DNA of 58,433 nucleotides from Poseidonia sp. (lineage in GTDB: Archaea > Thermoplasmatota > Poseidoniia > Poseidoniales > Poseidoniaceae): assembly GCA_030741355.1 (NCBI GenBank), contig JASLVM010000006.1, positions 1 to 58,433 of the forward strand, in the 5' to 3' direction. The notes beneath the pieces are model-generated. The model had not been told where the DNA came from. It saw only the letters and a program-made list of their open reading frames with translations, and ran no database searches. Below are positions 17,372 to 41,994 of the stretch, piece after piece; positions within the stretch are counted from its first letter, which is position 1, and every line of letters starts with the position of its first letter. The position numbers and the translations under genes were made by a program.

Positions 17372-18121
17372 ATGAAAGATTCTCGTTCATCGAGAAGTTA
17401 CGCAAAATCGCAGCCCGATTTTGATTATTACGTAGCGAAAAAATACAATTCCAAATCGGAAAAAGAACGAGATTTGTATTTCCAAAAATTACTCGAAGCG
17501 TTTCGAACGCTTTCCGAAGAAGCCCCAGAAGTCTTTGATTCCATTGCGCCAGAAATGCTTCAGCGAAGCATTTGGTCGTGGAGAGGCGCAGATCCCCTGC
17601 TCTCCAAGAAATTCAACAATTGGCTTCTAGCAGATTATCAATGGACGCCGTTCGACGAAATTTTACCGAAAGAATCGGCGAACCATCGCCCGCTGCAAGT
17701 GCCGCCGCTTGACCCGGAGCATCTCAATGAGGTGCACCATGCTTTGATTGAAGCTCTTCAAGATCGATTCCGAGGAGATCCACACCGATGGGACGCTTCT
17801 CGTCGAGACCAGTTTGTCATTCTCGGCATGATGGCAACCGCCGGCGGTTACGGTGTGCGTCAAGGAAAATTGATCCACAGCCTGGGCATGGGTCTTGCAG
17901 AGAGCGGCGTTCGAGGTGCAAACACGGTTCGAGCAGCTAAAATTGCCCTTTCTCGACTTGCGAAACCTTTCGGCCTGCAACTTTTCGCTCCAGCGGTTGG
18001 CAACGGCCCAGAACGTATTCACATGTTCAGTGATGATGAACTCGCTGAAGTCATCGCTCGCTACGTCTTCAATCACGACGCTTCGATTTTGCTTCCGGCA
18101 ACCAACGTCCCCGGTGTTTAG
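17372..18121 (+). CDS. Hypothetical protein
   Basis: Long ORF following an AT/A-rich region; start could be 17309 or 17372; no family recognised. Confidence 0.7.
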   Translation: MKDSRSSRSYAKSQPDFDYYVAKKYNSKSEKERDLYFQKLLEAFRTLSEEAPEVFDSIAPEMLQRSIWSWRGADPLLSKKFNNWLLADYQWTPFDEILPKESANHRPLQVPPLDPEHLNEVHHALIEALQDRFRGDPHRWDASRRDQFVILGMMATAGGYGVRQGKLIHSLGMGLAESGVRGANTVRAAKIALSRLAKPFGLQLFAPAVGNGPERIHMFSDDELAEVIARYVFNHDASILLPATNVPGV

Positions 18122-18225
18122 GCGTCGTTGGCTGGAGAATCAATTCATCGCGCCTTTCATATAGGGTAGGGCCCTTGAATAGGGCAGAGGGAACGCTGGG
18201 TTCCCTATGAACAACCCGTGAAAAA

Positions 18226-18376
18226 CGATGCAAACGGAGGATTTGAACAAGTCAATGTACAAGGAAAATGGAGAGAGGGACAGCGATTCTCCCTCAAGCC
18301 CCCCATCAATTGGAGGCCGACCAACCCTTGTACAAGATTTGGCGACTATTCATCCAATCCGCGAAGCGTTGCATCG
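18226..18376 (+). ncRNA. Candidate structured RNA / 5' leader element
   Basis: Nested helices: CGATGCAA(18226)/TTGCATCG(18369); CGGA/TCCG; GGAT..GAA..AGTC/GACT.TTCATCC; TGTACAAGG(18256)/CCTTGTACA(18326); apical hairpins GAGGGA/TCCCTC and TTGG/CCAA. Confidence 0.55.
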
Positions 18377-18477
18377 ATCCCAAACGCCGAAGCCCACCAC
18401 GTGCGCTTTGACATTGGAAAGAGAGAACAGCGGGTTCTCTATGTAAAACAACCAAAAACAAAGGAAGTGAAAAAAAC

Positions 18478-20022
18478 ATGAAGACGAAAATGATGAGCGT
18501 GCTATTGGCTTTGTTCCTCGCCCTTTCCGCTGTTTCGGCAGCCTCGGGTGATGGATCCGACCCCCTCGACCCCTCAGACGGCGGCGCCGACTGGGACGGC
18601 GATGGTTTGACCAACGCTGAGGAGCAATCCCAAGGCACCAACATGAACAATGCAGACAGCGATGGCGACGGTCTCCCAGACGGATGGGAGGTTTCGAACG
18701 GACTGAACCCCACCAACGGTGGCGATGGAAACGCAGACCCTGACGGAGATGGCTTGACCAACTCCCAAGAGTATGCCTCGGGTACCAACCCGAACAACGC
18801 CGACACCGACGGTGACGGCAAGTCCGACGCAACCGACCAGTTCCCCAACGACCCCAACGACGGTGAGTACTCCGACTCTGACGGTGACGGTATTCCTGAC
18901 GCTTACGACCCAGACTTCCAGGAGTCTGGAGCAGGCGCAGGTAACGGCGACACCGAGGGCGGCGGCGAATCCGACGCTGGAACACCAACTCCTGGACAAG
19001 GTCAGGGACAAGGTCAGGGACAAGGTCAAGGACAAGGTCAAGGACAAGGTCAAGGACAAGGTCAGGGACAAGGTCAAGGCCAAGGTCAACAACAAGGCCA
19101 AGGTCAAGGTCAGCAAGGTCAGCAAGGTCAGCAAGGTCAGCAAGGTCAGCAAGGCCAGCAAGGTCAGCAAGGCCAGCAAGGTCAGCAAGGCCAGCAAGGT
19201 CAGCAAGGCCAGCAAGGTCAACAGCAAGACAACGGCCAAGGTCAACAACAGCAAGGCGGTCAACAAGGCGGCCAGCAAGGTGACCAGACCAGCCAAGACC
19301 AGAACGGTCAGAACCAGAACGGTCAGAACGAGCAACAGCAAGGTCAGACGCAGAACGGACAGCAGGGTCAACAAGGCCAGCAATCCGATCAGCAACAAGG
19401 CCAGCAGCTCGGCAACCAGGACGAGAACGACAACGATGGCGATGGTATCCCGAACGACGTCGACAACGACGACGACAACGACGGTATCCCCGACTCCGTC
19501 GATGATTCACCAATGGATCACGACAATGACGGCACCGACGATTTCGAGGATGATGACGCTGATGGCGACGGCATCGACGACCGCGAGGAAGTGAACGATG
19601 GCGACCCCAACACCAACATCTACGACCACGACAACGACGGCATCTCCGATGCTGTTGACTTGGACATCGACAACGATGGCATTGACAACCGAAATGACAT
19701 TGGCGACATGGGCGAAGACCTGTCCCGAGACCACGACAACGATGGTATGGACGACGCTGAAGACGACGACGATGACAACGACAACATCCTCGATGTTGAC
19801 GAAATCGACGGCGTTGCCGGAAGCTACCGCTACGACCATGACAACGATGGCATTTGGGATCTTACCGACAACGATGACGACAACGACGGTCTTATGGACT
19901 GGTTTGAAGTCAACGATGGCAACGATCTCACGGGTCAATTCGACGCTGACAACGACGGAACCGATGATTACGAGGACGACGACGACGATAACGACGGCAT
20001 CCTCGACATCTACGAACTCTGA
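18478..20022 (+). CDS. Secreted thrombospondin type-3-like Ca-binding repeat protein with central Gln/Gly low-complexity region
   Basis: Signal peptide; DxDGDGLxDxxE..GTNP repeats; (GQ)n and (QQG)n tract; C-terminal DHDNDG..DxDDDNDG repeats; no C-terminal anchor. Confidence 0.92.
   Translation: MKTKMMSVLLALFLALSAVSAASGDGSDPLDPSDGGADWDGDGLTNAEEQSQGTNMNNADSDGDGLPDGWEVSNGLNPTNGGDGNADPDGDGLTNSQEYASGTNPNNADTDGDGKSDATDQFPNDPNDGEYSDSDGDGIPDAYDPDFQESGAGAGNGDTEGGGESDAGTPTPGQGQGQGQGQGQGQGQGQGQGQGQGQGQGQGQQQGQGQGQQGQQGQQGQQGQQGQQGQQGQQGQQGQQGQQGQQGQQQDNGQGQQQQGGQQGGQQGDQTSQDQNGQNQNGQNEQQQGQTQNGQQGQQGQQSDQQQGQQLGNQDENDNDGDGIPNDVDNDDDNDGIPDSVDDSPMDHDNDGTDDFEDDDADGDGIDDREEVNDGDPNTNIYDHDNDGISDAVDLDIDNDGIDNRNDIGDMGEDLSRDHDNDGMDDAEDDDDDNDNILDVDEIDGVAGSYRYDHDNDGIWDLTDNDDDNDGLMDWFEVNDGNDLTGQFDADNDGTDDYEDDDDDNDGILDIYEL
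18994..19218 (+). repeat. Coding microsatellites: ~16 x GQ (6 nt) then 12 x QQG (cagcaaggy)
   Basis: ggncar units at 18994-19089 and cagcaagg(t/c) units at 19111-19218, read directly. Confidence 0.95.
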
Positions 20023-20067
20023 AGTTGACGCACCGACTGTCAAAGAACCGTCTCTGACGGGTACAAC

Positions 20068-20121
20068 AGGCGCTCCGGGGCCAAGGCCTCGGAGTGCCTC
20101 CTTTTCCTCCTCCTCCCTTTC
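20068..20121 (+). terminator. Strong hairpin plus pyrimidine tract after the 514-aa gene
   Basis: AGGCGCTCCGGGGC-CAAG-GCCTCGGAGTGCCT (14 bp, 2 G-U) followed by CCTTTTCCTCCTCCTCCCTTTC. Confidence 0.65.
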
Positions 20122-20251
20122 ATTGTAAATCGAAGGGTATCGACGTTCTTTCGTGTTGATACGCAGAGTGTTCTGTGATACGCAACCGCACAATCGCGCC
20201 AAGCCCTTGAAATAGGGTATTTTGGTGGAGAGGTGATTACGAGGTGCCCGC

Positions 20252-23200
20252 ATGCTGTCAAAACAACACACTCAAAAAATCGAAGAGCGACAACAACTCT
20301 CCATGGCCATTATCATCGTGTTTTTGATGCTGGCCAGCAGCCTCCTCGCCATTGTCCAGACCGTTCACGACGGACCAGAAGCCACCAAAGCGACTCAACT
20401 TGTTGACGGCGGGAGCCTCGGCATGACCCCCATCCAATCCACGGACCAAGGCGGCCAAGGTGGATGGGACGGCGTCCACGACAGTCATTATGACATGGCT
20501 CACGAAGCCCTGAGGGACCTCATGTGGTCGGACCCAGGCGTTTCCGCTGGTGTCATCGTTGACCTTTCCGTTCTCGAAGCTGCCATCCCCTCGTATTCCA
20601 CCTTCCTCGAAGAAACCCGGGCCGGCGACCACGACAACGACGGTATCGACGACCTTGCCGACCTCGACGACGATAACGATGGCATCTACGACTTGCTTGA
20701 GCGATTCGACGGATGTTACGGAACCGACCCATACGACCACGACAACGATGGCATTCTCGATGTTGATGATTGGGACGATGACAACGACGGCATCCTCGAA
20801 GGGCCCATTGATTACGCCGCTCTTGAGGCGCAGGGCCTTGACCCACGAAACGTGTCCACCGACCGCTACCTCGACCCGACCATCGACCACCCTCACCCCG
20901 ACATCGGGGCCATTGGCAACTTCTACCTCGCGGACCAGAACCCCATGGACCACGACAACGATGGCGTGACCGACGAAGACAATGACGGTGCAGGCCCCGG
21001 CCGGTACGATGAGGACGACGACAACGACGGCCGGATCGACCAATTCACGTGGCCTTGCGATTTGGATTCGGACGGAATTTCGGACTACTTCGACGCCGAT
21101 GACGACAACGACGGCGTTCTTGACGTTGAGGACGCCCACCCCTACGACGCCAGCATCACCACTCAAATGTCTACGACGGCTTCTCTCTACGATGCCTCCC
21201 GACTTTGGACGTTCAACGAATACCGCCAATACTCTGGCGGCGTTGATTATGTTGACTGGGAGCGTAACAGAGTAAACGCTCAGGGCGCTACAGCCTCGGG
21301 CTTCTTCGGCGGCCTCGATGACCTCATCGAATTGAGTGACTCCCATGGCACTCCTGCTTTCATCAACATTGTTGACGGCGACCTCGATGGTGACGGCTCC
21401 CCCAACTTCCTCGACCCGGACAACGACAACGACGGTACGCCGGATTCGGCTGACACCGACGATGACAACGACGGCATTCTTGACATGGTTGACCCCGACG
21501 ATGACAACGACGGCATCCCCGATACGTGCGTTGAAATTGACACCAACGGCGACCAGACCAGCGATTACACCGGGCTTCAGAACGGGGCTGTGACAGGATT
21601 CACCATCTCGACGGGTGGCGCGAACTACAACAGCGGCACCGATGTTGCGACGGCGAACGCAGGGAGCACTGGAACCGGGTTGACCGTTGACATCACGACC
21701 ACGGCAGGCGCCATCACGAACGCCGTCATCAACCGGGCAGGTTCCGGATACAGCGTCGGCGACATCGTGACCGTCAACGGTGGCGATTCCAAGGGCAACT
21801 TGACCATCACGAGTGTTTCGACCGCTATTTTCGAACTTCCGGGTGGAGACGGTGATGGCGACGGGCAAATCGATTGTGAAATCGATTATGACGGCGATCT
21901 CGACGACGATATTCGTCGGCCGTTTGACCAGAACTACAACGGCATCTACGACTGGCTCGACACCGACATGGGTGGAACGACCTCCCCCGACAATCTCGGC
22001 AACTTTGCCGTTGGTGGCGCTGACATCCCGTACGATTTGGACAACGATAACATCGAGAACGAAAACGACTCGTTCCCGCTGAACACCGCGGCGGAAGTTT
22101 CCACTTGGAACTGCCCTACGCAAGCCAACCCCAACCCCACCAACCCCGACCCACGATGTCAAACCCGCCGCGCCTCTTTCTCACAATTCAACGATTGGGA
22201 CGGCGACGGTATCAGCAACTGGGACGATGTTGACGACGACAACGACGGCATCATCGACGTCTTGGACATCGACTGGGACTGTGACCTCGATAACGACAAC
22301 GACCTCCACCAAATCAACGGTGGGTTGTACCGGGACGATGGGCCCAATGATGTGGATTCTGACGTGGACGGAGACGGCCTTGAGAACAGCATTGACTGGG
22401 ACGACGACAACGACGGCATCGCCGACCTCTTCGACCCCGATGACGGAAATTGCGGCATCGTTGATTTCGACGCCACCGACGCCTTCGGCACACCTTACTA
22501 TCCTGTGAACGACGGTGGCGCCCTCGATGGGTCCAGCGACAGTCAACTCTACGATACCAACTCCACCGACCACTGGAACTTGGTGTTCCAGCACTACCCC
22601 TTCGCCGATGTGGTCCTCAACTACAACGGCTACGACTCAACCACCAACCCTCCCACACCAGGTATCGTGCCTGAATTCTACTGGTTCCTCTTCGCTCGTT
22701 GGTCGCCCTACAACGGCGGTAACGACTGGGATATTGATTCGGATGGTGATTCCCTCATCAACGGCTTGGACATCGATCAAGACGCCGACGGGATGCCCGA
22801 TTGGTGGGACCAAGACGAAGGAAACGACGGTGTTTTGGATGTTGAGGACGTCAAGATGGGCGGTTCATTCGACCTTTCAACCTGCGGTTGGACGGCAGGA
22901 AACCTCGGGCAAGGCTTTGTTTGCGGCTACGCCTATGCGCTCGCATACAAGATGCCGCTCAACGGCGTCAACGCTCAGTTTGGTGCTCCTTACTCCACCC
23001 GGCCAGACGCTGCCTTTGACCAAGGCGCCACCGCCGGAGGTCCGTCAGGCAATTGGAGCTGCACTCCGGTTGAAGGCATCGGCTGCTGGCACTACGACTT
23101 CGGTGGCGACGGCACCATTGACTCTGCCATCACCTACACTCAGATGACCGATAACCGAGACGCATTCAACTCCTGGATTGGTTTGACCACTGGCATCTGG

Positions 23201-26200
23201 CAGTGGAACAGTGACAACGGCCCCGAAGCCGACTTCCCCGATGAATTGGGAGCCGACCTCCTGAAGAACGATGTCGATGGAGACGTTGACGGTGACTTCA
23301 CCAACTCCACCATCGATTTGGACGATGATTACGACTCCATCTTCGACTGGTTTGACGTGGATGACGACAACGACGGTGTATGGGATTACTTTGAGGTTGA
23401 CAGTAACTTCGACCTCGACGACGACACCGGCCAAAACAACGGGAACTTCTTCTCCGGGTCCAACTGCGATGACAACGACGATGACGGAAACGACGCAGAC
23501 GCCGATGACGACGGCTTCTACCAAGCGGTTTGGGACCAAGGAATCATGTCCCAAGGCCTTCGCCAACCAACCCTCTATGACGTTGACAACGACAACGACG
23601 CCATCCCTGACGGGGAAGATCCCGACGACGATAACGACGGTCGTTTGGATGTTGACCAAGAACGCCTCCCCGGTTGTTTCTGGGGCGAAGAACAGTCCAC
23701 ATGGGACAACGACAACGACGGTATCGTGAACTGGGCTGATGATGACTGGGACGGCGATGGCTTGACCAACGCTGCTGAACTTCTTGTGAGCATCACGGCG
23801 CCGTTTGACCACGACAACGATGGCGTCCGCGACGACCTTGACGAAGACGACGATGAAGATGGCATGCACGACGAAGACGAAGTGTTGCTTTGGCCCACTC
23901 GCTTCGACCGCAATTCCACCAACCCGTGGGACCACGACGACTTTGGCGACGGGGAAGCGCTTGCGAACCCGCTCGATGACTCGACGGGACCGGACGCTAT
24001 CGACAACGATGACGACAACGATACTCGAATCGACGTGGACTTTGACCAAACGGAGGACACCGAATTGACCTCTGACTGGGACAGCGACAACGACGGCATC
24101 TTGGACGCAGACGACAAGGCACCCACCTACATCACGCTCAATCTCCCCGATAACCTGTGGCTTGACGCACAAAGCCCAACCATCTTTGCCGGGCATGTTG
24201 ACTGGTTGAACCCGGTTACCGGCGTGGTTGAAGCGGCACCGCAACTTCCGGTTCAGGTGCACATCGAATGGGCGGACAACCAAACCACGGCTGTTGAAAC
24301 GATTGACGTCTTGACCAACGCAGCTGGAAACTTCAGCGTCGGACAATTCCTCTATCCCGAAGATTTGACGGTGGGCGATAACACGACTTACCGCGTCTAC
24401 GCAGAAGTGACGGAGATGTTCCTGTTCAACGGAAACGAGTCGCAGTCCTACTATGTCGGTGCTGAGGCCAACATGACCGTCGATTACTCGGCGTGGACCT
24501 ACTTCCGCAGCGATGAGCAACCGTTCTGGCTTGACTTCAAGGCCCACTATGCCGCTGACTGGGACCGAGGATTGTTTGACAACCGAATCAAGAACTCCCC
24601 CATCACCTTCTCCATCTTCGGTGGACTGTTTGGCAACCTAACCGCCCCCACCAACTTCACCGGTTTGGGTAACAACGGCTACCGAACGGACGCTTCCGGA
24701 TGGGCTTCACTCACCTTCGTTCAGGACTTGGGTATCGCTGGCACATGGAAGCAAGTGCAGTGGAATTCCACCGCCGACAACGGCGTTGGCCAAATCCCGG
24801 GTGGCTACGAAGAAATCGGATGGAACGATTTGACCAAGCAGCATGACGTGGTCCTCGACGGCGACGGCAACCCGTTGCGGTACAATTACACCAACACGAG
24901 TCTACCCGCAGGCGACATCGAAATCATTGCGCGTGTTTCACCCGAATTGGCGAACGAATGGCCGTTCCCGTTCCTGAATGGCGACGAGGCTGAACCGTTC
25001 TCTGTTCGCATCATGCACCGCATGAACATCGAGGGAACGCTGATCGTTGATGGCCTGAGCCCGATTTACTACTACGACTCCACCGTCAACAACGGTGACG
25101 GAACCTTTGGCGACTGGTCGACTCTGTTCCATCAGCCTGCACTGACCGCAGCCGGTGTCAACTACAACGATGTGGCCGCCTTCAAACCGTATCCAAAATC
25201 ATGGGACGGTACGCCAGAAGGTTTGACCGGTCAAGCAGCAGCTCTCCGACCGTTCCTCACTGGAAACGGCAGCCACTGGTTCATCGCTTTGGTGAACGGC
25301 GGCGACAGCAACCTGCCGCCTTGTGGACCTGTGGACCGAACGGACCCCAACAGCCCTGTTCGCTGTGAGATTGTCCCCGAAATGAACACGGGCGAATCTC
25401 TCCAAGTCGTTGGAAAGGTCACCAACCGCACCAACGAACCGTGGGACCAAGACCCGATCGCTCTGCAAGTTGACGTTGACAAGAACGGCCAATTCCTCGG
25501 CGCTGGTGAGACGGCTTACACGCAACGCCCCATCATGAAGGACGGCGATGCAGCCTACGATTACAACTGGTCTTGGTTCAGCCAATACGGTGCTGGAACC
25601 TACGGGCTCCGTGTCGACTTCACCAACTCTGCCTACTACTTCACCGGCAACTCATCGACGTTGGCTCCAACGGGTGCGTACATCAACGTCACCGTGGTCG
25701 GTACCACCGACTTCCAGACAACCTCGTTGCCTCGCCTTTACAGGAACACCAACACCACCATTCAGGCGAAGTTGGTTGACAATTCACTTCAACCGGTTCG
25801 AAACGCTCCGGTCAACTACACCTGGTCCTTTGACGGACGCACGGGCGTGAACTTCACAGACAACAACGGTTTCTTCGAAATTCCGTTCAATGTTTCCGCC
25901 ACCGACGACCTTGGCAACTTCACCTTGCAGTTCGAATACTCCGGAACATCACTCCTCAAAGGAACCTCAGTGAGTCAGTCGGTCTGGGTCGTATCTCGGA
26001 CCTACATGCAGGTGATTTCAACCGAAGACAACCTGCGGCGTTCGGGTGATAAATGGGATTTCACCGCTCAAGTATCGGACGATAACAAGACGAGTATACG
26101 GGATTCAGGAGGCACAGCGCTTTCAGGTTCCGAAACGCCTTACGGCGGTTTGGTTGATGTCATCTTCGAAGGCACGGACTTCCAAGGCACGTTGCACCGA

Positions 26201-28354
26201 CAGGTCGTGGCTACACTGGCGCCGAATGCCGGTGTGATTTCGCTTCCAGAAGTTGAACCGGATGGTTCCCACCTCTGTTTCTACGACGGCAACGGCGACA
26301 ACATCCCCGACCGAGACATCGACGGTGATGGTTTGGAGGTCGAGGAAACCGTTGGATGTTTGAAGTCCAACATTTCACCACTCAACCCCGCCTTGCTACG
26401 AGCCGACCCCGAATCCTTCTTGCCGAATGGATTTGGTCCAGTGAACGTGATTTTGCGATTCCAAGAGACGCTGCCCAATGAGGGCTGTCAACCACTTGAC
26501 GTCAGCTACCTTGGCATTCAAGGAGCATGGGACCCGTGTACTCAAATTCCTGGAAACGACCACTTCCGACTTACGATGACCAACAACGCCAACGGCTTCA
26601 ACCTCATTGGCCGCACCGTCATGTCGGTTGACGACCAAATTGTCTACACCAGCGAAATCGACCCGCTTACGGGTGAAGTCGTTCCCAAGCCAATGATCGT
26701 CACCGGGCAACTCAGCGATGAGTTGGGCGTGAACCTGACCGATCGAAGCATCCGCGTCAATTACGAGATGGTGAACGGTCAAACCGGTCCCGTCGCATGT
26801 CAATCCGGCACCACCAACGCTGACGGTTACTTCTCCATCATCTGTCCGCTCTCGGACGTGATGGCTGGTAAAGCCAAGGTGACGGTCTCGTACTCGGCTT
26901 ACGACAACAACGACGCCTACCGATACGAGAACAAGACGGTCCAAACCGAGTTCGACGTCTTCTCCAACTCTACGTTGCAGATCACCGAAGTTGGGCCGTT
27001 CAAGTCCAGCGTTGACCAGTGGGTTGCTCCGAACGGTTCTCGCTATCCAGTGTTGTACCTGAAGGAGTCGTTCCACATCGACGCGTTCCTCGCTCAGTCC
27101 AACGGACAGGCGGTTGGCGGTAAGTGTCTCAACATCTACCTCGACCCCGATGAGAACGTTCGCCCGCTTGCCACGGTTCGCACCAGCGACATCGATGGAA
27201 GCGTGGAATGGTTCAGCGGCGACCCTGTGCAAAACCCAACCTTGCGAGGCGTGGAAACCACCGGTGGTAAACTGGAAGGTTTCCGTACGCTCCAAGTGGC
27301 GTTTGAGCCCGACCGGAACATCCCCGGAGGTTGTGATAAGGACAGCAGTAACGCTCTGAACGGTTCAGCCATGAACATCGAAGTTCTCGTTCGTTCACGG
27401 GTTGACCTGCAAGTCAAGCAGACCTGGAGCAATAGCGGCGCCAACGGCGCCGATGAAGGCGACCTCATCACAGGACAAATCGCCCTCCTGCGCGACCGTC
27501 TTGACCTCGCTGTTGAGAACGAAGAAGTCATCTTCGCCTACGAATTCTTTGATGATGAAACCGGCACATGGGTTGTCTCTGATTTGAACAACAAGACCCG
27601 AACCAACGAGCAAGGTATTGCCTCCTTTGAATGGAGTTTCGTTGGTCAGAGTTGCGATGGAAACCCGTGTTCCGGTGTTTGGCGAATCACGGCCTATTAC
27701 CCCGGGTCGACGTACTTTGCACCATCACAGGACAACATCACGCACGAAATCACCTACAAGAAGGCCGAAGCCTTGGGCGACGCCAGTGGTTTGTTCAGCC
27801 CGAGCAACCTGATTGGTTTCGCCATCGTCTTGATGGCCTTGTTGATTGCAGGTGCGATCTATTACCAGCGAGTTCAGCAACAACGCCAGGTCCAAGCGCT
27901 CCGTGGTATTCTGACCGATGCCATGATGCAACTTGAAGCCAGCAACGAATACATTGCTGCCATCTTCGACTGCTACAAGAGCCTCGTGAAGCACTTCAAG
28001 AAATACGGCTTCATGAAGAAGGTCTACGAAACAGCACGTGAGTTTGAAGCGGCTGTCCGTTCGGCCTTCAACATGGTGCCTGTTGACCAATTGGATGACT
28101 TCCTGTCCATCTTTGAAGAAGCCCGATACTCCGAGCACACCATCGACGCAACGCATCGAGACCGTGCGCTGCAAACCCTCGGTGCCATCACCAACTCCTT
28201 GACGATGGCTCTGGGCGAAGAGTCGGTGGTCAAGCGCATCGATGCGACCAGCATTTACGACAACCTGACCAAGGCCGGCGAATTCGTCGCAGCAGACGGT
28301 TCAGTCCGCCAGGCTGGTATGGTTGAAGGCGAGAACACGGACTTCAAGATTTGA
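20252..28354 (+). CDS. 2700-aa surface protein: DHDNDG/TSP3-like repeats, Ig-like beta-sandwich stalk, TM, cytoplasmic DUF4129-like domain
   Basis: N-terminal signal/TM; ~1200 aa of Asp-rich repeats; beta-rich regions with TDxNG motifs; TM IGFAIVLMALLIAGAIYY; YKSLVKHF..ETAREF..IFEEARYSEH is DUF4129-like; GAGGTG RBS. Confidence 0.9.
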   Translation: MLSKQHTQKIEERQQLSMAIIIVFLMLASSLLAIVQTVHDGPEATKATQLVDGGSLGMTPIQSTDQGGQGGWDGVHDSHYDMAHEALRDLMWSDPGVSAGVIVDLSVLEAAIPSYSTFLEETRAGDHDNDGIDDLADLDDDNDGIYDLLERFDGCYGTDPYDHDNDGILDVDDWDDDNDGILEGPIDYAALEAQGLDPRNVSTDRYLDPTIDHPHPDIGAIGNFYLADQNPMDHDNDGVTDEDNDGAGPGRYDEDDDNDGRIDQFTWPCDLDSDGISDYFDADDDNDGVLDVEDAHPYDASITTQMSTTASLYDASRLWTFNEYRQYSGGVDYVDWERNRVNAQGATASGFFGGLDDLIELSDSHGTPAFINIVDGDLDGDGSPNFLDPDNDNDGTPDSADTDDDNDGILDMVDPDDDNDGIPDTCVEIDTNGDQTSDYTGLQNGAVTGFTISTGGANYNSGTDVATANAGSTGTGLTVDITTTAGAITNAVINRAGSGYSVGDIVTVNGGDSKGNLTITSVSTAIFELPGGDGDGDGQIDCEIDYDGDLDDDIRRPFDQNYNGIYDWLDTDMGGTTSPDNLGNFAVGGADIPYDLDNDNIENENDSFPLNTAAEVSTWNCPTQANPNPTNPDPRCQTRRASFSQFNDWDGDGISNWDDVDDDNDGIIDVLDIDWDCDLDNDNDLHQINGGLYRDDGPNDVDSDVDGDGLENSIDWDDDNDGIADLFDPDDGNCGIVDFDATDAFGTPYYPVNDGGALDGSSDSQLYDTNSTDHWNLVFQHYPFADVVLNYNGYDSTTNPPTPGIVPEFYWFLFARWSPYNGGNDWDIDSDGDSLINGLDIDQDADGMPDWWDQDEGNDGVLDVEDVKMGGSFDLSTCGWTAGNLGQGFVCGYAYALAYKMPLNGVNAQFGAPYSTRPDAAFDQGATAGGPSGNWSCTPVEGIGCWHYDFGGDGTIDSAITYTQMTDNRDAFNSWIGLTTGIWQWNSDNGPEADFPDELGADLLKNDVDGDVDGDFTNSTIDLDDDYDSIFDWFDVDDDNDGVWDYFEVDSNFDLDDDTGQNNGNFFSGSNCDDNDDDGNDADADDDGFYQAVWDQGIMSQGLRQPTLYDVDNDNDAIPDGEDPDDDNDGRLDVDQERLPGCFWGEEQSTWDNDNDGIVNWADDDWDGDGLTNAAELLVSITAPFDHDNDGVRDDLDEDDDEDGMHDEDEVLLWPTRFDRNSTNPWDHDDFGDGEALANPLDDSTGPDAIDNDDDNDTRIDVDFDQTEDTELTSDWDSDNDGILDADDKAPTYITLNLPDNLWLDAQSPTIFAGHVDWLNPVTGVVEAAPQLPVQVHIEWADNQTTAVETIDVLTNAAGNFSVGQFLYPEDLTVGDNTTYRVYAEVTEMFLFNGNESQSYYVGAEANMTVDYSAWTYFRSDEQPFWLDFKAHYAADWDRGLFDNRIKNSPITFSIFGGLFGNLTAPTNFTGLGNNGYRTDASGWASLTFVQDLGIAGTWKQVQWNSTADNGVGQIPGGYEEIGWNDLTKQHDVVLDGDGNPLRYNYTNTSLPAGDIEIIARVSPELANEWPFPFLNGDEAEPFSVRIMHRMNIEGTLIVDGLSPIYYYDSTVNNGDGTFGDWSTLFHQPALTAAGVNYNDVAAFKPYPKSWDGTPEGLTGQAAALRPFLTGNGSHWFIALVNGGDSNLPPCGPVDRTDPNSPVRCEIVPEMNTGESLQVVGKVTNRTNEPWDQDPIALQVDVDKNGQFLGAGETAYTQRPIMKDGDAAYDYNWSWFSQYGAGTYGLRVDFTNSAYYFTGNSSTLAPTGAYINVTVVGTTDFQTTSLPRLYRNTNTTIQAKLVDNSLQPVRNAPVNYTWSFDGRTGVNFTDNNGFFEIPFNVSATDDLGNFTLQFEYSGTSLLKGTSVSQSVWVVSRTYMQVISTEDNLRRSGDKWDFTAQVSDDNKTSIRDSGGTALSGSETPYGGLVDVIFEGTDFQGTLHRQVVATLAPNAGVISLPEVEPDGSHLCFYDGNGDNIPDRDIDGDGLEVEETVGCLKSNISPLNPALLRADPESFLPNGFGPVNVILRFQETLPNEGCQPLDVSYLGIQGAWDPCTQIPGNDHFRLTMTNNANGFNLIGRTVMSVDDQIVYTSEIDPLTGEVVPKPMIVTGQLSDELGVNLTDRSIRVNYEMVNGQTGPVACQSGTTNADGYFSIICPLSDVMAGKAKVTVSYSAYDNNDAYRYENKTVQTEFDVFSNSTLQITEVGPFKSSVDQWVAPNGSRYPVLYLKESFHIDAFLAQSNGQAVGGKCLNIYLDPDENVRPLATVRTSDIDGSVEWFSGDPVQNPTLRGVETTGGKLEGFRTLQVAFEPDRNIPGGCDKDSSNALNGSAMNIEVLVRSRVDLQVKQTWSNSGANGADEGDLITGQIALLRDRLDLAVENEEVIFAYEFFDDETGTWVVSDLNNKTRTNEQGIASFEWSFVGQSCDGNPCSGVWRITAYYPGSTYFAPSQDNITHEITYKKAEALGDASGLFSPSNLIGFAIVLMALLIAGAIYYQRVQQQRQVQALRGILTDAMMQLEASNEYIAAIFDCYKSLVKHFKKYGFMKKVYETAREFEAAVRSAFNMVPVDQLDDFLSIFEEARYSEHTIDATHRDRALQTLGAITNSLTMALGEESVVKRIDATSIYDNLTKAGEFVAADGSVRQAGMVEGENTDFKI

Positions 28355-28447
28355 AGCCCCCATCGGTGAAGTGCCGAGGTCCACTCAGCGTAAGCAAGAC
28401 CCGCTGAAGCCTTAACCTTCAAAGGCTGGAGGCCTGTGTGTTGGTTC

Positions 28448-28891
28448 ATGGACGACTGGAAGGCGCTCATTGACCAAGCCATGCAAATTGAAACGACCGA
28501 CACCATCGGAGCCCACGGGATGTACGAACACGCTGTTCGAGCGGCCCTCGCTCAGTCTCAGATGTTGCTGGGCGATTTGGAAGCCGCTCAAATCATCGAA
28601 TCCATTTACGGTGCTTTGGTGGCTTATTCACAGACCGTCATGCTTCGCATGAAAGCCGAAGACCCCGAGCCAGGGAGCGCCGACCACGCCTTCCGTGCTG
28701 GGCAAGCCTACGGCGTTAGCTGCATTCTGAACCACCTCATCGATCGCTTGACGGACGTTGCTGGCATCACCGCCTTGGGCGCTCTTGACGACTTTTCCGA
28801 TACACTCCACGACGAAATCATCGTCCAAGCCCGCGCGGCCGGTTTGATGGTTGAGTTGCTTGATGCGAAGGGCGAAATCCTTCTTGAGTGA
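28448..28891 (+). CDS. Hypothetical helical protein
   Basis: ATG 28448 (MDDWKALIDQAM...); coding-like composition; no family recognised. Confidence 0.75.
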   Translation: MDDWKALIDQAMQIETTDTIGAHGMYEHAVRAALAQSQMLLGDLEAAQIIESIYGALVAYSQTVMLRMKAEDPEPGSADHAFRAGQAYGVSCILNHLIDRLTDVAGITALGALDDFSDTLHDEIIVQARAAGLMVELLDAKGEILLE

Positions 28892-30639: not shown

Positions 30640-33600
30640 ATGGCGCCACCGCAACGCCAGTTCATGCGACAAGGTCGTGCACTGAGCATGGTGACGCTTC
30701 TCCTGACGGTTCTCCTTCTCCCAATGGTGAGTGGAGCGGACAGTACCGTATCGACCAACACCACGTGGTCGGGAAACATGGTCCTTACCGGTAATGTGAC
30801 CGTTGCTAACGGTGTGACGCTGACCGTTTCCCCCGGAACCAGCATCGACGCCAAATCCTACGCCATCGTTGTCGAAGGGACACTGGTCGCCGACCAGGCT
30901 TCGTTTTACTCTTCCATCGTTCCGGAAACACAGGGGTCTCACGGTCAAGGGCTATGGCCCGGCCTTGTGATCGAATCAGGTGGCCAAGCCAATTTGACCG
31001 AAGTTACCGTGGCCAATGCTTCTGCTGGTGTGCTGGTTCGAGGTGCATTCAACGGTTCAGACGTGGTGTTCAACGACGCTTATCGTGGTCTTTCGGTGAT
31101 GGGCGGTCATGCCGTCGTCACTGGCTTTGAAGCAAATAGAATGGATTACGAAGCGCTGTATGTCGAAAGCGGTTCGCTTGATTTGAACAACGGAACGGCC
31201 ACGGAGGTGGCGGTTGGCCTGGCCAATTACGCCACGGCAAACCTGGTGGAATACACCGTTAATGAGGCGGGCGTTGGTGTTCAATCGTACGGTGGAACAC
31301 TCGACCTTAACGGCCTTGGTGTTTACAACGCAAGCGTTGGATTTGCTACCGCATCGGGGGCTTCGTCCTCGGTTCAGACATTCATGGGGAGCGGTCTGGC
31401 GTTGGCCATTGACGCTGGCGATGCCGATGATTTTGAAATGCACTTTGCACGCTTACAAGGCGAACGAATGGTGCTTGGCCAGAGCGTTTCTTCATTGCAC
31501 TTCGATGATGTTGAATTTGTATCTACATCCTCTACGGAGATGCGGCCGGTGTTTGATGTCAGTTGTGACGGCTTTTGCAAGCTGGAAAACAGCCTCATTG
31601 AGGGCGAGCCGCGCCTGGGAGCCTCTTGGTCGGGCATCGGAACATCACAGATGACGAACGTGTCCATTTTTGCTGCTGAGCAAGCGGTGGAAGCTACGGG
31701 CAGTGGCCATGCGGAATGGACAAACCTGACCGTTAACGCCTCTCAAACCGGCGTATCGGTTCAAACACCGACGAGTACGCTGTCTAACATCGTGGTTGAG
31801 CTGACATCAGCCGATGGCGTTGGCGTGGACGTTCTTGGCGGTGTGCACGATTGGGGGACCGTCACCGTGGAGAAATCCTTCCTTTCAACCGACACGACCT
31901 CCATCGGGTTGAAGGCATGGTACAGCGACCTTTCCATCGGTCATTTCACCTCGCGAAACACCTCGACCGGCATGATGTTGGAAGACAGTTCGGCGGTGGC
32001 CCAAACCGTTGAAAACAACATCGGAAGCCTCGTCGGCGTCCATCTGATCGATTCCACTTACCGTGGCTCGGACCTCACCACCATCGCACAGGACGAAGGC
32101 GTACTGATGGAAGGGGAAGCCGACCTCCACCTTTCGTCCTGGACGGCCCAACTTCACGACACACCTCTGATGATGTCTACAGGGAGCACCGCCATCGTCC
32201 GTGTGTTCAACCCGTTGAACACCGCTCCCACCTCTGCTGATGCGCTTGGCGACGGTACGCTGTATTACGGCTCAACCTACAATCCAACCATCAGCACATC
32301 CGCTTCCTATCGTTTGATTGAAACGGACGTCACTTTCACGGATTTGGCCGCTCAGCCGGTTGAGGCTCACGTTGTCGTTCACGGTTTTGCCTTGATGAGC
32401 AACAGCAACGGGGCTCTCACCGTCCCGCTTGTGAACAGTGGCTCGGTGGTCGACGCCACCCTGCAGGGTGCAGGGGTCCGCGTCACCCTTTACGGCGGCC
32501 AGACCGGTCAATCCGTTCAAGTTCCCGTGATTCCACAAGGAGACTGGACCATTTCTTCTGGTCAAGACGTCGTCCTCGGCCCTCGGCCCGACGGTCAACC
32601 CCACCAACTTTCAGGGGATTTGACGGTCGCCAACAACGGGGCTTTGACCTTGGTTTCTACGGATGTGACGTTGGCTCCAGGACAGACGATTACCGTGGAA
32701 GGTACGGGCCAACTCATCGGAGAAGACGCCACCATCACGGCCGACGCCCTCCAAGCCAGCGGCCAGAGCGTGTTGACCGGGACCGATTCTGCTTCACTCA
32801 CGCTCGACATGAACGTTCAATGGGGATGCTTGAGCGACCGGGAAGTGCAGCACCTCAACATCCTCGGTTCACTGGTTGTTCAACCGGGATGCGAGATCGA
32901 CATCATGGGCGGAAGCGTAGAAGGGACCATCACCGCCATGACGGGAGCCGTGTTCACCAGTTCGTCAACGCTTGACCTTGTGGTGCTGGACAAAGGCGAA
33001 CCGGTTGAAGGCGCTCTGATTTCCATTGAAGGAGCGGTTGCGATGACCGATGCCAACGGCGAACTGTCAACCGAAACCGTCGCACGGAGCGTCACCGATG
33101 TTGGTGAAACGTGGGAAGGCATCAAGACCGTTACCCTTCAACGCAACAACTTCTCTGACTTCGTCACATGGGACACCAACCGTTCACTGACGCACACGTT
33201 CATGGCGTCCACGGTACCCAGCGGCGAAATATCAGGCTGGCTTGTCCTCGAGCGCCAGTGGAGCCCCTACACGTTGGACCACTCTCTTGTCCTGCAAACC
33301 GCTTCCACCATGACCGTCCAAGACGGCGTCTCCCTGCGAATTTCAGAGAGCGCTACCATCACGGTGAACGGGGTGCTTGATGTCGGCGAAGCCACCCTCT
33401 CCTCCACGGGCTTTGGTGCTCGATGGGGCGGTCTTGCTCTCGGACCTTCAACGGCCGCCGTGATTGAACTCTCGGGGTCGCAACTGATTGAGTCTGCTCC
33501 AGCGTTGACCGTTTCTGGATTGGGTTCCGTCCAAGCGGACGGCGTGTTCATGGCGCGTTCCGCAAGCGACCCGTTGGTCGTGGTAGAATCCGGAAGTGCG

Positions 33601-35331
33601 GCCTCGTTGGTCGTTCGAAACAGCCACCTGCAAAACGGGAGCGGCTGTGCCCAAATTTACCCCTCTACCGGGTTGATCACGTTCAGCAACGTGAGTTTTG
33701 CCGATTGTGAAGAACAAGCGATTTGGGCGCAACAAGCCCCCTTGGATTTCTCCGCGTTAACGTTGGCGGAGGGTACGAATTGGGGCTTGGAGTTGACCGG
33801 TGTTTCAGGCTCGGTCAACGGCGTAGATGCAACCCAATTTCAAGGAACAGGCCCCATTCTCTCGTTGAACAGCATCATGTCGGATTTCTCGCTGACCGAC
33901 GTGGTGGGGACGGTATCGGGTCAAGCCGGGATCGTTGGTGAGAACAACGAAGACATCACCGTTGAGCGAGTTCATCTCACGGGTGCTCCCGCCATCGATG
34001 TCGACCGAACATCCGGCCTCTTCTCCGACATCACGCTGGAGGGAGAAGGCAGCGGCACCGCCTTCATCTCTCATCACGGTCGTTCATCGGATTCGCTGGT
34101 GGTGGAAAACCTCAACATAACAGGATACAATGTCGGTGTTTCGCTTCATTCGGACCCTGGTGAAATCAGTGCACCGTTGGTGCTGCGCAACGCCCACATC
34201 GTGGTCTCAAGCGCTTTGGCAACGGAAGAATTCCCGGTTCGCATGGAGTCTTGTTCCCTCGTTGGCGGGGTTGATGTCGCCTTCACCGAGGTGGTTTCGG
34301 TGGACGGTCAAGTCGGGACGGTCTCGGTCAGCGAGGGCGGTGAATTCTCGGCCTACCGCACGATGGTGCTTGATGCACAGCGAGCAGGAGTGCCGGTTTT
34401 GGCGACGTTTACGGTCGGTTATGGAAACGAACTTCTCGAGTCCTTCAGTATTCAAGGCACCACCGTCGATGTTGAACTTCTGTTGCGCACCATCACGGAA
34501 ACAGAAGAATCGGTGGCTTCCGAATGGGTGGTGCAGGCCGCAGTGTCCGGTTCACCGTTGGCCGAAAGAACGGTGGAATCGCCCGTGGCGGCCCCGTCGC
34601 TGTTGGTCATCACCGTTTTGGTGAACCAACCGCCTGTGGTTCAGTTGGTTGAACCCTACGCCGGTCAGCGCGTGATGGAAGGGGATTTCATCCGAGCCTC
34701 TGCTACGTTTACCGATGACATGGACGGTGACGGTGACTTGGTCATCTCTTGGCGGGTGTACGACCTCGCGGGCGTCACTGTGTCGCAAGCCGGAAACGAA
34801 CCCGTGTTCAATATCACGGATTTGACGGCTGGATTCTACATCGTGGAGGTCACGGTGACCGATACTTACGGAGAACAAGCGACGGCTTCCATGGACTTCG
34901 AATACACCTTGTTGGATACCGATAACGACTGGTCTTCATCGTGTTCATCGGACACGTGGTTTGACCCCAACACCGGGAAATCCTGCGGACCGAACATCTA
35001 CGACCAAGACGATGATAACGACGGGTTCAGCGATGAAAAGGACGCGTTCCCACTGGACCCTTGCGCTCAAATTGACACCGATGGCGATACCCAGCCCGAT
35101 GATTTGGACTGTCCCGACGGCTTCACGAGCTGGTTGACCGAGGACATGGACGATGACGGTGATGGAACACCGGACGTGTTGGAGGGCACCGAAACCAACG
35201 ATGCTGATGTAGACGTGAACGGACTGATGGTGGTCTTGGCCCTCTTTGTGGTCGTCGCCCTGCTCTTCTTTGCCCGTCTGCGCCGCGGGGGTCCGGGCGA
35301 CTTGACCTCGCTTGATCAACAACACCTCTGA
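30640..35331 (+). CDS. Large surface protein: parallel beta-helix (pectin-lyase-like) repeats, PKD/Ig domain, TSP3 repeats, C-terminal TM
   Basis: Signal peptide; NTTWSGNMVLTGNVTVANGVTLTVSPGT helix cap recurring near SPYTL..; VNQPPVV PKD-like start; DTDGDTQPDD repeats; TM + RLRR. Start may be ATG 30664. Confidence 0.85.
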   Translation: MAPPQRQFMRQGRALSMVTLLLTVLLLPMVSGADSTVSTNTTWSGNMVLTGNVTVANGVTLTVSPGTSIDAKSYAIVVEGTLVADQASFYSSIVPETQGSHGQGLWPGLVIESGGQANLTEVTVANASAGVLVRGAFNGSDVVFNDAYRGLSVMGGHAVVTGFEANRMDYEALYVESGSLDLNNGTATEVAVGLANYATANLVEYTVNEAGVGVQSYGGTLDLNGLGVYNASVGFATASGASSSVQTFMGSGLALAIDAGDADDFEMHFARLQGERMVLGQSVSSLHFDDVEFVSTSSTEMRPVFDVSCDGFCKLENSLIEGEPRLGASWSGIGTSQMTNVSIFAAEQAVEATGSGHAEWTNLTVNASQTGVSVQTPTSTLSNIVVELTSADGVGVDVLGGVHDWGTVTVEKSFLSTDTTSIGLKAWYSDLSIGHFTSRNTSTGMMLEDSSAVAQTVENNIGSLVGVHLIDSTYRGSDLTTIAQDEGVLMEGEADLHLSSWTAQLHDTPLMMSTGSTAIVRVFNPLNTAPTSADALGDGTLYYGSTYNPTISTSASYRLIETDVTFTDLAAQPVEAHVVVHGFALMSNSNGALTVPLVNSGSVVDATLQGAGVRVTLYGGQTGQSVQVPVIPQGDWTISSGQDVVLGPRPDGQPHQLSGDLTVANNGALTLVSTDVTLAPGQTITVEGTGQLIGEDATITADALQASGQSVLTGTDSASLTLDMNVQWGCLSDREVQHLNILGSLVVQPGCEIDIMGGSVEGTITAMTGAVFTSSSTLDLVVLDKGEPVEGALISIEGAVAMTDANGELSTETVARSVTDVGETWEGIKTVTLQRNNFSDFVTWDTNRSLTHTFMASTVPSGEISGWLVLERQWSPYTLDHSLVLQTASTMTVQDGVSLRISESATITVNGVLDVGEATLSSTGFGARWGGLALGPSTAAVIELSGSQLIESAPALTVSGLGSVQADGVFMARSASDPLVVVESGSAASLVVRNSHLQNGSGCAQIYPSTGLITFSNVSFADCEEQAIWAQQAPLDFSALTLAEGTNWGLELTGVSGSVNGVDATQFQGTGPILSLNSIMSDFSLTDVVGTVSGQAGIVGENNEDITVERVHLTGAPAIDVDRTSGLFSDITLEGEGSGTAFISHHGRSSDSLVVENLNITGYNVGVSLHSDPGEISAPLVLRNAHIVVSSALATEEFPVRMESCSLVGGVDVAFTEVVSVDGQVGTVSVSEGGEFSAYRTMVLDAQRAGVPVLATFTVGYGNELLESFSIQGTTVDVELLLRTITETEESVASEWVVQAAVSGSPLAERTVESPVAAPSLLVITVLVNQPPVVQLVEPYAGQRVMEGDFIRASATFTDDMDGDGDLVISWRVYDLAGVTVSQAGNEPVFNITDLTAGFYIVEVTVTDTYGEQATASMDFEYTLLDTDNDWSSSCSSDTWFDPNTGKSCGPNIYDQDDDNDGFSDEKDAFPLDPCAQIDTDGDTQPDDLDCPDGFTSWLTEDMDDDGDGTPDVLEGTETNDADVDVNGLMVVLALFVVVALLFFARLRRGGPGDLTSLDQQHL

Positions 35332-36361: not shown

Positions 36362-38614
<2,253 letters not shown>

Positions 38615-41567: not shown

Positions 41568-41948
41568 ATGGGCTTGCGCGACTGGTTCAAATCAGGTTCG
41601 TCAACCAAGGAATCTGCTGCTACTGAGGCCACACCGCTCGACGAAGATAGTCTTCAAGAGCAAGCGTTCGCAGAACTCCAAGAAGCCAAAACAGACGAGG
41701 CTCTTTCGCTGTTTGACGAGGCTGAAGTGACCCGTGCCGAGGCGAAACCGGTGGCCGCACCCTACGACGCAGGCGATGCATCGTTGGACGATTTGATGGC
41801 CGAAGAAGATGAGAGTTTCTCGCATGTGGATGAAGTGGATGTGGTCGATGTTGCCTCCCTCGACGACCCCTATCTCCATGCCAGCATTGAGGGCGATGTT
41901 CCCGAAGCGGTGGTCTTTGACGAGGATGAAAACCCCCCTTCTGTTTAA
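41568..41948 (+). CDS. Small highly acidic hypothetical protein
   Basis: MGLRDWFKSG amphipathic start followed by D/E-rich, probably disordered sequence. Confidence 0.7.
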   Translation: MGLRDWFKSGSSTKESAATEATPLDEDSLQEQAFAELQEAKTDEALSLFDEAEVTRAEAKPVAAPYDAGDASLDDLMAEEDESFSHVDEVDVVDVASLDDPYLHASIEGDVPEAVVFDEDENPPSV

Positions 41949-41994
41949 TCTGGACTCCCGAACCATTAGAAAGGGTAAGGTTAGCCTTGTTTTC

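Follow-up and report, generated by a model that had tools for sequence, protein, structure and literature searches.

A 58,433-nucleotide (nt) window, the whole stretch of Poseidonia sp. DNA analysed here (contig JASLVM010000006.1 of assembly GCA_030741355.1), carries two open reading frames (ORFs) on the same, forward strand, one encoding a small secreted acidic protein of 514 amino acids (aa) and the other a giant surface protein of 2700 aa with a DUF4129 domain. Both were found at exactly the positions given by an earlier interpretation made from the letters of the window (hereafter the sequence-only reading). We consider it probable, with some reserve, that they are two separately transcribed genes for constitutive outer-envelope components of Poseidoniales (Marine Group II, MGII) archaea. 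The results on which this interpretation builds, set out below, concern the architecture and topology signals of the proteins, the conservation and synteny of the genes, their separate cis-elements and their presence in RNA libraries. Both genes are core genes of the order Poseidoniales, and the available evidence supports the view that their products are extracellular, very acidic and built of thrombospondin-type-3 (T3)-like Asp loops. Poseidoniales rank among the most abundant archaea in surface seawater; no member is in culture, and what their cell envelope consists of is unknown. The window itself is archaeal, carrying L18e, L13, S9 and PAC2 genes.

Architecture of the small protein and the giant

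The small protein comprised a signal peptide (aa 1–22), TSP3_bac repeats (approximately aa 25–150), a Q/G tract (aa 172–315) and a C-terminal array of loops (aa 316–514), in agreement with the earlier description of two acidic repeat blocks joined by approximately 140 aa of GQ and Q. Its sole hydrophobic segment was at aa 4–24, with neither a later transmembrane segment nor a C-terminal sorting signal, so that the protein is unanchored, as had been proposed. Three TSP3_bac (PF18884) repeats were identified in the N-terminal part at 41.4 bits (cut-off, 25). Of 17 DxDxDG loops in all, 12 followed the Q/G tract, and four of these 12 read DHDNDG; the loop residues were invariant in 15 orthologues. 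The mature protein consisted of 26% D + E and contained only five K + R, including a single Lys. No N-glycosylation sequon was found in the mature protein, and no Cys in the small protein as a whole.

Within the Q/G tract, a Q/G/N segment of approximately 90 aa was nearly invariant across three families in the orthologue alignment, with many invariant Q, G and N columns. In comparison with a congener, only five of 89 residues had changed, and 32 identical residues were encoded by different codons, indicating purifying selection at the protein level. The preceding GQ tracts had widely differing assembled lengths among genomes; given that nearly every assembly breaks inside the tract, its length is uncertain.

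Close relatives of the giant are named in NCBI sources as DUF4129 domain-containing proteins of Candidatus Poseidonia sp. or Poseidoniaceae. Hydrophobic segments were located at aa 14–39 and aa 2513–2539, and DUF4129 (PF13559; cut-off, 24.8 bits) was detected at 28.6 bits in the whole protein, 33.8 bits in the tail alone and 35.6 bits in the genome scan, which bore out the description of a membrane-spanning protein with a DUF4129-like end. A PDB sequence search with this tail returned nothing at E ≤ 1. The giant contained 35 DxDxDG loops in all, including four DHDNDG loops, and the Asp, Asn and Gly residues of its loops were invariant in 57 orthologues. AlphaFold2 models were built on a 57-row orthologue alignment. 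For aa 101–1300, the model had a mean predicted local distance difference test (pLDDT) score of 45 and hardly any secondary structure, and Ca-dependent T3 “wires” are expected to be modelled in this way. For aa 1291–2490, the mean pLDDT was 85.4, and the model consisted of all-beta tandem sandwich domains. Foldseek matches of this stalk comprised MG arrays, from alpha-2-macroglobulin and complement proteins, as well as the Nitrosopumilus S-layer, with template modelling scores (TM-scores) of only 0.08–0.19, and such very low values give the fold class only. The stalk contained 29 N-x-S/T sequons, in comparison with 13.3 ± 3.2 in shuffled sequences (none of 1000 shuffles reached 29), whereas the loop region contained 8 in comparison with 10.4 in shuffles. 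The stalk of the giant is probably glycosylated.

A G/T/S-rich insert (…GSGYSVGDIVTV…) at 21584–21841 of the window (aa 445–530 of the giant) was found in this genus; column identity over this stretch was 0.14–0.34 elsewhere, and it was modelled as a small beta unit with moderate confidence.

The double-loop pattern DHD.DG..D..D.D[DI]D[ND]DG occurred twice in the small protein and twice in the giant. The sequence-only reading had treated this His-containing variant as a feature shared by the two proteins, and the sharing was upheld by the equal number of DHDNDG loops in both. The motif is not private to the pair, however, as DHD[NGD]DG was also present in at least seven other ORFs of this genome. 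A comparable loop, DSDHDG, is found in animal COMP, so that a His in such loops is neither novel nor restricted to these two proteins. The giant's TSP3_bac match was below threshold (11.2 bits; cut-off, 25).

Conservation across the order

Strong orthologue matches to the giant were obtained in 34 of 41 relatives. In the other seven, the only match was to a paralogue, by way of its DUF4129 tail; of these genomes, six were 70%–87% complete and the seventh (G033) was 96% complete. Amino acid identity was 76%–98% within the genus and 44%–62% in the other two families. Among 121 genomes of the order, the N-terminal region of the giant was found in 97 and the C-terminal array of the small protein in 75 (E ≤ 1e-45), and orthologues of the small protein occurred order-wide; a word-based search for homologues that used the full-length small protein as query returned mostly unrelated TSP3 repeat proteins. 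When 201 genomes from across the phylum were sampled, full-length giants were present only inside the order (20 of 21 genomes in family f1 and 13 of 14 in family f3), and six genomes outside it gave weak single-domain matches only. The length was also well conserved. Orthologous ORFs read from the loci spanned 2563–2713 aa, and most of the database relatives (120 among the matches listed) were 2600–2720 aa long, although shorter ones of approximately 1500–2440 aa were also included. Furthermore, L18e-L13-S9 followed directly 3′ of the giant in all 15 loci that held its 3′ end, with a 151-aa ORF sometimes intervening.

This conservation bears on another potential function of the two proteins, namely that the Ca loops act as adhesins, attaching the cells to organic particles or phytoplankton (algal) surfaces and not forming part of their own coat. 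T3 repeats occur in many adhesive matrix proteins. Additionally, in a passage of Rinke et al. (2019; PMC6461757), thrombospondin-type genes in Poseidoniales are interpreted as adhesion factors. Nevertheless, an adhesin function appears unlikely to us, and no lectin or adhesin-tip domain was recognisable in the giant by Pfam or Foldseek. Typical adhesins are variable and strain-specific, whereas the giant is of constant length and its gene is a core gene, present in single copy among housekeeping genes. Taken together, the fixed length, core distribution and housekeeping neighbourhood, the lack of a recognisable enzymatic or lectin domain, the likely glycosylated stalk and a distal half that should be Ca2+-saturated in seawater are better explained by a structural role in the envelope than by a variable adhesin.

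Linkage, cis-elements and transcription

Both genes could be placed in 68 genomes, in a linkage table combined by hand from the separate searches for the small protein and the giant and restricted to genomes in which both queries matched. They were adjacent or at most 4 kb apart in 48 genomes and unlinked in 20. Linkage was retained in 39 of 40 genomes of family f1 (the exception being G258), in the single genome of family f2, and in all eight genomes of the family f3 genera g3, g4, g11 and g115. In contrast, none of the 19 genomes of the f3 genera g5, g6, g7, g8 and g117 had the two genes adjacent; all sampled members were unlinked, with both genes kept. In these 19 genomes, the genes were located on separate contigs or, where they shared a contig, were separated by 245 kb, and in at least 15 of them the contig extended at least 10 kb past the expected position of the partner. 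Adjacency thus looks ancestral and appears to have been lost in part of one family without the loss of either gene. Synteny across MGII, which the sequence-only reading had suggested as a check, holds for most genomes, but not for five whole genera.

The regions upstream of the two genes did not resemble each other in their conserved elements (Table 1). The small gene is preceded by two palindromes, B1 and B2, which were the only G[AG]GAAC-N5-GTTC[CT]C sites in the genome and which were also kept where the small gene is unlinked from the giant. The approximately 220–330 nt between them were not conserved; a GGAGGA motif was kept approximately 30 nt after B1. The column block of the TTTCATATAGGGT element was conserved in 22 aligned upstream regions representing three families. 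B1 and B2 could function as paired operators or, alternatively, form hairpins at the two ends of a long leader RNA, and given that their stems never vary, covariation cannot tell these apart. The 6-N5-6 layout is that of sites bound by TrmB-type archaeal regulators. An Rfam search over 17900–20400 detected no family except for a chance miRNA match, and a 73-codon leader ORF (18229–18447) was rejected as a candidate, since it was not conserved and had stops or no start in other genera.

According to the sequence-only reading, the two genes share a promoter palindrome. The assembly (1.97 Mb) does contain exactly two copies of GCCCTTGAA(A)TAGGG, one at 18171 and one at 20203, but the sequence proved to be the ordinary TATA consensus of this organism. 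Its arms measure only 4 + 4 nt. The core, TT[GC]A[AT]ATAG, is TATA-like and generic; the genome contains 19 copies, many of which precede a start codon by 30–60 nt. The copy at 18171 lies 307 nt upstream of the ATG of the small gene and was replaced by unrelated sequence in most sister species.

The strong hairpin reported between the two genes was recovered at 20068–20099, with a 14-bp stem (z = −3.3) followed by a C/T-rich run. Twelve of the 17 predicted pairs of the 3′ element of the small gene had changed on both sides among 14 sequences, one of which came from an unlinked locus, and the hairpin travels with the small gene even at such a locus. This element looks like a terminator. Upstream of the giant, TGATAC-N13/14-TGATAC was found in 21 of 23 loci from three families; the only other match in the genome was intragenic. 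This direct repeat is likely a regulator site particular to the gene of the giant. Given their own TATA elements, the gene-specific cis-elements and the hairpin, the small gene and the giant constitute two transcription units.

Contigs with exact matches on both genes were present in four metatranscriptome runs from two studies. Small-gene contigs stopped at 20037, 20061 and 20072, at the hairpin, in two studies, which is a weak hint of a terminator. Contigs began at 18430 in run X3 and at approximately 18443–18460 in run X1, and the region 5′ of these positions back to B1 was uncovered in both runs. The region 20122–20508 was uncovered in every run, although an absence of contig cover carries no weight.

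Considered together, these results bear on whether the genes form a two-component matrix, in which the small protein would bind the distal loops of the giant via Ca bridges to form a mesh or gel, with the hairpin raising the dose of the small subunit. The linkage in 48 of 68 genomes, extending to all three families, the retention of both genes together order-wide and the related loop type are in line with such a matrix, as is the higher contig depth on the small gene (k-mer depths of 5–26 in comparison with 2.3–9.6 for the giant over four runs, although contig depths of this kind are unfit for ranking genes). However, the genes are unlinked in the remaining 20 genomes, including all sampled members of five genera; their conserved cis-elements are separate and different, with the hairpin following the small gene alone; the C-terminal array of the small protein had no match in the giant at E < 1e-5 in its own genome after composition correction; and the His loop extends to the other ORFs mentioned above. 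A complex prediction for aa 101–450 of the giant with aa 300–514 of the small protein gave a score of 0.00, which amounts to no answer and counts neither way. A partnership between the two proteins is possible, but the matrix appears doubtful to us, and the notion of a two-gene system is weakened.

Table 1. Features of the small gene, the giant gene and their flanking elements in the window
Feature	Coordinates	Strand	Basis or remark
TATA-like element (TTTCATATAGGGT) of the small gene	18155..18167	+	matches the TATA core of the genome; ~29 nt before B1
First “palindrome” copy GCCCTTGAATAGGG, second TATA-like element	18171..18184	+	exact match
Palindrome B1, GGGAAC-N5-GTTCCC	18189..18205	+	in 25/26 small-gene upstream regions, three families
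Palindrome B2, GAGAAC-N5-GTTCTC, 39 nt before the ATG of the small gene	18423..18439	+	in 23/26 upstream regions
Small secreted acidic protein, 514 aa	18478..20022	+	ORF, Pfam, loop count, hydrophobicity, orthologue alignment
GQ/Q-rich tract, 144 aa	18991..19422	+	length-variable (GQ)n, then ~90-aa Q/G/N segment; alignment across three families
Terminator-like 3′ element of the small gene: short hairpin, GGTACAACAG, 14-bp GC-rich hairpin, C/T-rich run	20047..20123	+	
Direct repeat TGATAC-N13-TGATAC	20157..20181	+	~25 nt upstream of the TATA element of the giant
Second “palindrome” copy GCCCTTGAAATAGGG, the giant's own TATA-like promoter element	20203..20217	+	35–49 nt before the ATG of the giant
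Giant DUF4129 surface protein, 2700 aa	20252..28354	+	ORF, Pfam, orthologues
Distal acidic region, aa ~118–1290, with 33/35 DxDxDG loops of the giant	20603..24121	+	loop count
Stalk of tandem beta-sandwich (Ig/MG-like) domains, aa 1291–2500	24122..27751	+	AlphaFold2, Foldseek
Transmembrane helix, aa 2513–2539	27788..27868	+	hydrophobicity
Cytoplasmic DUF4129 domain, aa 2574–2642	27971..28177	+	Pfam

One f3 genome (locus L036, G034:C6, 5848–5864) has a third B-type palindrome, located in front of an additional gene that separates the small gene from the giant; at its N-terminus, the product of this additional gene resembles the small protein (37% identity). Genes for secreted acidic proteins may form a small regulon marked by the B-type motif.

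The 151-aa ORF between the giant and L18e in this genus (28436–28891) had no Pfam family; its counterpart was in reversed orientation in family f2 and in the f3 genera g3, g4 and g11, and was missing from this position in other genera. The upstream neighbour hyp_17279 was considered as a regulator travelling with the small gene and was rejected, given that no homologue was found beside the small gene in f3 loci. Further downstream, a gene for a bacterial-type NAD-dependent DNA ligase (LigA domains and BRCT) was located at 36410–38614 of this archaeal genome's window, and such a gene was also found just 3′ of the ribosomal genes in several f3 genera. Three other large ORFs of secreted or surface type were present at 30640–35331 (1563 aa, with a weak beta-helix match), 41809–43182 (a PKD-domain protein) and 47925–52253 (1442 aa). 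Elsewhere in this assembly (G000), short extra contigs (C117:44–1054, C6:1–570, C16:5–523 and C24:7–513) held second, diverged copies, with 76%–85% identity for the small-gene copy and 72% for the giant piece, and G010 also had two loci. The extra copies may stem from a relative that was binned together with this genome or may represent a genuine second locus.

Proposed envelope model and comparison with known systems

In the envelope reading favoured here, the giant would be a type-I membrane glycoprotein consisting, from the outside in, of approximately 1200 residues of T3-like Asp loops, approximately 1200 residues of beta-sandwich domains, a transmembrane helix and a 150-aa DUF4129 tail, with most of its N-glycosylation sites on the beta-sandwich stalk. 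It represents the transglutaminase-less sister of a TgpA-like giant encoded in the same genomes. In seawater (approximately 10 mM Ca2+), the loops would be Ca-loaded and would fold compactly without regular secondary structure. The expected result would be a strongly anionic, Ca-stabilised glycoprotein canopy, held off the membrane by the stalk. The small protein would then belong to this layer in soluble form or in loose association, supplied from its own separately regulated transcript.

Several points weigh against this envelope reading. Ca binding, glycosylation and the envelope location are inferred, as is any contact between the small protein and the giant. The DHDNDG arrays remained below the Pfam TSP_3 (PF02412) cut-off of 25 bits, scoring 14.4 bits for aa 270–302 of the giant and 15.4 bits for the C-terminal part of the small protein. 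The C-terminal array of the small protein does align to the T3 repeats in the solved structure of COMP (PDB 3FBY; E = 6.7e-4), a similarity that speaks for T3-like loops, but the match was weak and composition-biased, and the low-confidence model of the acidic half of the giant would fit intrinsic disorder equally well. The RNA evidence consisted of assembled contigs, which give neither strand nor level and could reflect DNA carry-over. Finally, no giant orthologue was found using three queries in the well-assembled, 96% complete genus representative G033, and the giant is therefore not strictly universal.

The sequence-only reading had also raised the prospect of a coat cross-linked by transglutaminase, while recognising no catalytic motif in either protein. 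That latter statement was confirmed, given that Pfam scans of the small protein and the giant, whole or in pieces, detected no Transglut_core (PF01841). A hidden transglutaminase in the GFVCGYAYALAY...CWHYDF segment of the giant, which resembled a degenerate Cys/His core, was considered and rejected; its Cys was conserved, but no conserved His was present in aa 860–960 and one orthologue was without the stretch. The suggested genome search for transglutaminase-DUF4129 and MoxR genes did yield both, on other contigs. The DUF4129 genes of the genome were located on contigs C94 and C50. The latter encodes a second DUF4129 giant (C50:108573–117503; 2976 aa) with TSP3_bac, Transglut_core, an MG/Ig array, a transmembrane helix and DUF4129. 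When aligned to TgpA (PDB 6G49), this TgpA-like giant had Thr at the position of the catalytic His, and the His was missing (Thr or another residue) in all 12 TgpA-like orthologues examined, from 30 loci fetched. DUF4350, MoxR and DUF58 were clustered on contig C39, apart from both DUF4129 genes.

In its N-terminal part, the small protein shared 47% identity with the corresponding end of the TgpA-like giant. The idea that it specifically bridges the two giants was nevertheless rejected, as several unrelated TSP3_bac proteins scored equally once composition was corrected for.

A covalent coat would require the Gln tract of the small protein to serve as acyl donor for a surface transglutaminase, linking the protein into the envelope. 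The purifying selection on the Q-rich segment is compatible with this, and the genome encodes two further membrane-anchored transglutaminase-like proteins with intact Cys and His (C50:62992–63300 and C63:5183–5464), the former also carrying DHDGDG-type acidic loops. However, no transglutaminase-like gene was linked to the present locus, the core was absent from both proteins and lacked its catalytic His in the DUF4129 paralogue, and Lys is scarce, with the single residue in the mature small protein and Lys-poor ectodomains in both. Furthermore, most prokaryotic members of the transglutaminase superfamily are thought to be proteases. A transglutaminase-cross-linked coat is therefore very improbable, and the idea that the DUF4129 proteins themselves perform enzymatic cross-linking was removed as unsupported. 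A mineral-nucleating or Ca-buffering surface, for example for CaCO3 nucleation, is extremely improbable. It is favoured solely by the very high density of Asp loops; nothing specific speaks for it, and MGII are not known to calcify.

If the small Q-rich protein and the two DUF4129 giants together formed the MGII envelope, this could be a Ca-set, hydrogel-like anionic coat in which the Q/G/N segment is cohesive, a dedicated regulator acting at B1/B2 doses the soluble part and the giant is driven independently via the TGATAC repeats. As a complete picture, this is speculative and rather improbable. The envelope reading in its simpler form is of interest for other reasons. The giant is a strong candidate for a structural envelope component, as its length is fixed, its gene lies beside ribosomal genes and, in the genome sample, it was restricted to the order. 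The small protein contains a Gln-rich segment that is maintained by purifying selection despite its low complexity. There are also three conserved cis-elements, namely the B1/B2 palindrome pair, the TGATAC repeats and the covarying terminator hairpin. The two proteins could serve as antigens for labelling and as targets in metaproteomics, and the elements as sites for regulator hunting. In the passages found by literature searches on Marine Group II/Poseidoniales, neither gene was described; the general remark on thrombospondin genes in Rinke et al. (2019) was the only related one.

Among known repeat proteins, animal T3 repeats (PF02412; 3FBY) share the DxDxDGxxDxxD loops and their spacing of approximately 13 residues with both archaeal proteins. 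Animal repeats contain disulfide-forming Cys, whereas the small protein contains none and aa 101–1300 of the giant contain 13, with at most three per 100 residues. The C-terminal lectin-like domain of thrombospondin is absent from both. Bacterial TSP3 repeats (PF18884) are matched above the cut-off by the N-terminal repeats of the small protein.

The closest counterpart of the giant is the TgpA-like giant, with which it shares a common plan of an N-terminal hydrophobic segment, Ca-loop repeats, a sequon-rich beta-sandwich array, a transmembrane helix and a DUF4129 tail. The two tails were 34% identical, and both giants are order-wide. They differ in that the TgpA-like giant has a Transglut_core and TSP3_bac repeats, whereas the giant of the window is without the core and has approximately 1200 aa of T3-like double loops; moreover, the former is located behind a 987-aa partner gene and the latter by ribosomal genes. 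Classical TgpA is approximately 650–700 aa long with an N-terminal domain of multiple transmembrane segments. The multi-spanning domain of the TgpA type (PA2873 of Pseudomonas aeruginosa; 6G49) is absent from the window's giant, which has a single segment there (aa 14–39). Nor is its gene adjacent to MoxR or DUF58, as in the MoxR-DUF58-DUF4129 gene cluster.

The stalk also recalls alpha-2-macroglobulin and complement MG proteins within the low range of TM-scores given above; the Pfam MG2 and MG4 matches were sub-threshold, and no thioester-domain family was detected in the giant by Pfam. S-layer proteins are without the combination of a transmembrane anchor, a cytoplasmic domain and a 1200-aa loop region found in the giant. 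The S-layer of Nitrosopumilus maritimus (PDB 8C8M) gave the highest query TM-score among the matches listed (0.17, a resemblance in fold class only), and it likewise combines a long beta-sandwich array with a strongly anionic surface and likely N-glycosylation.

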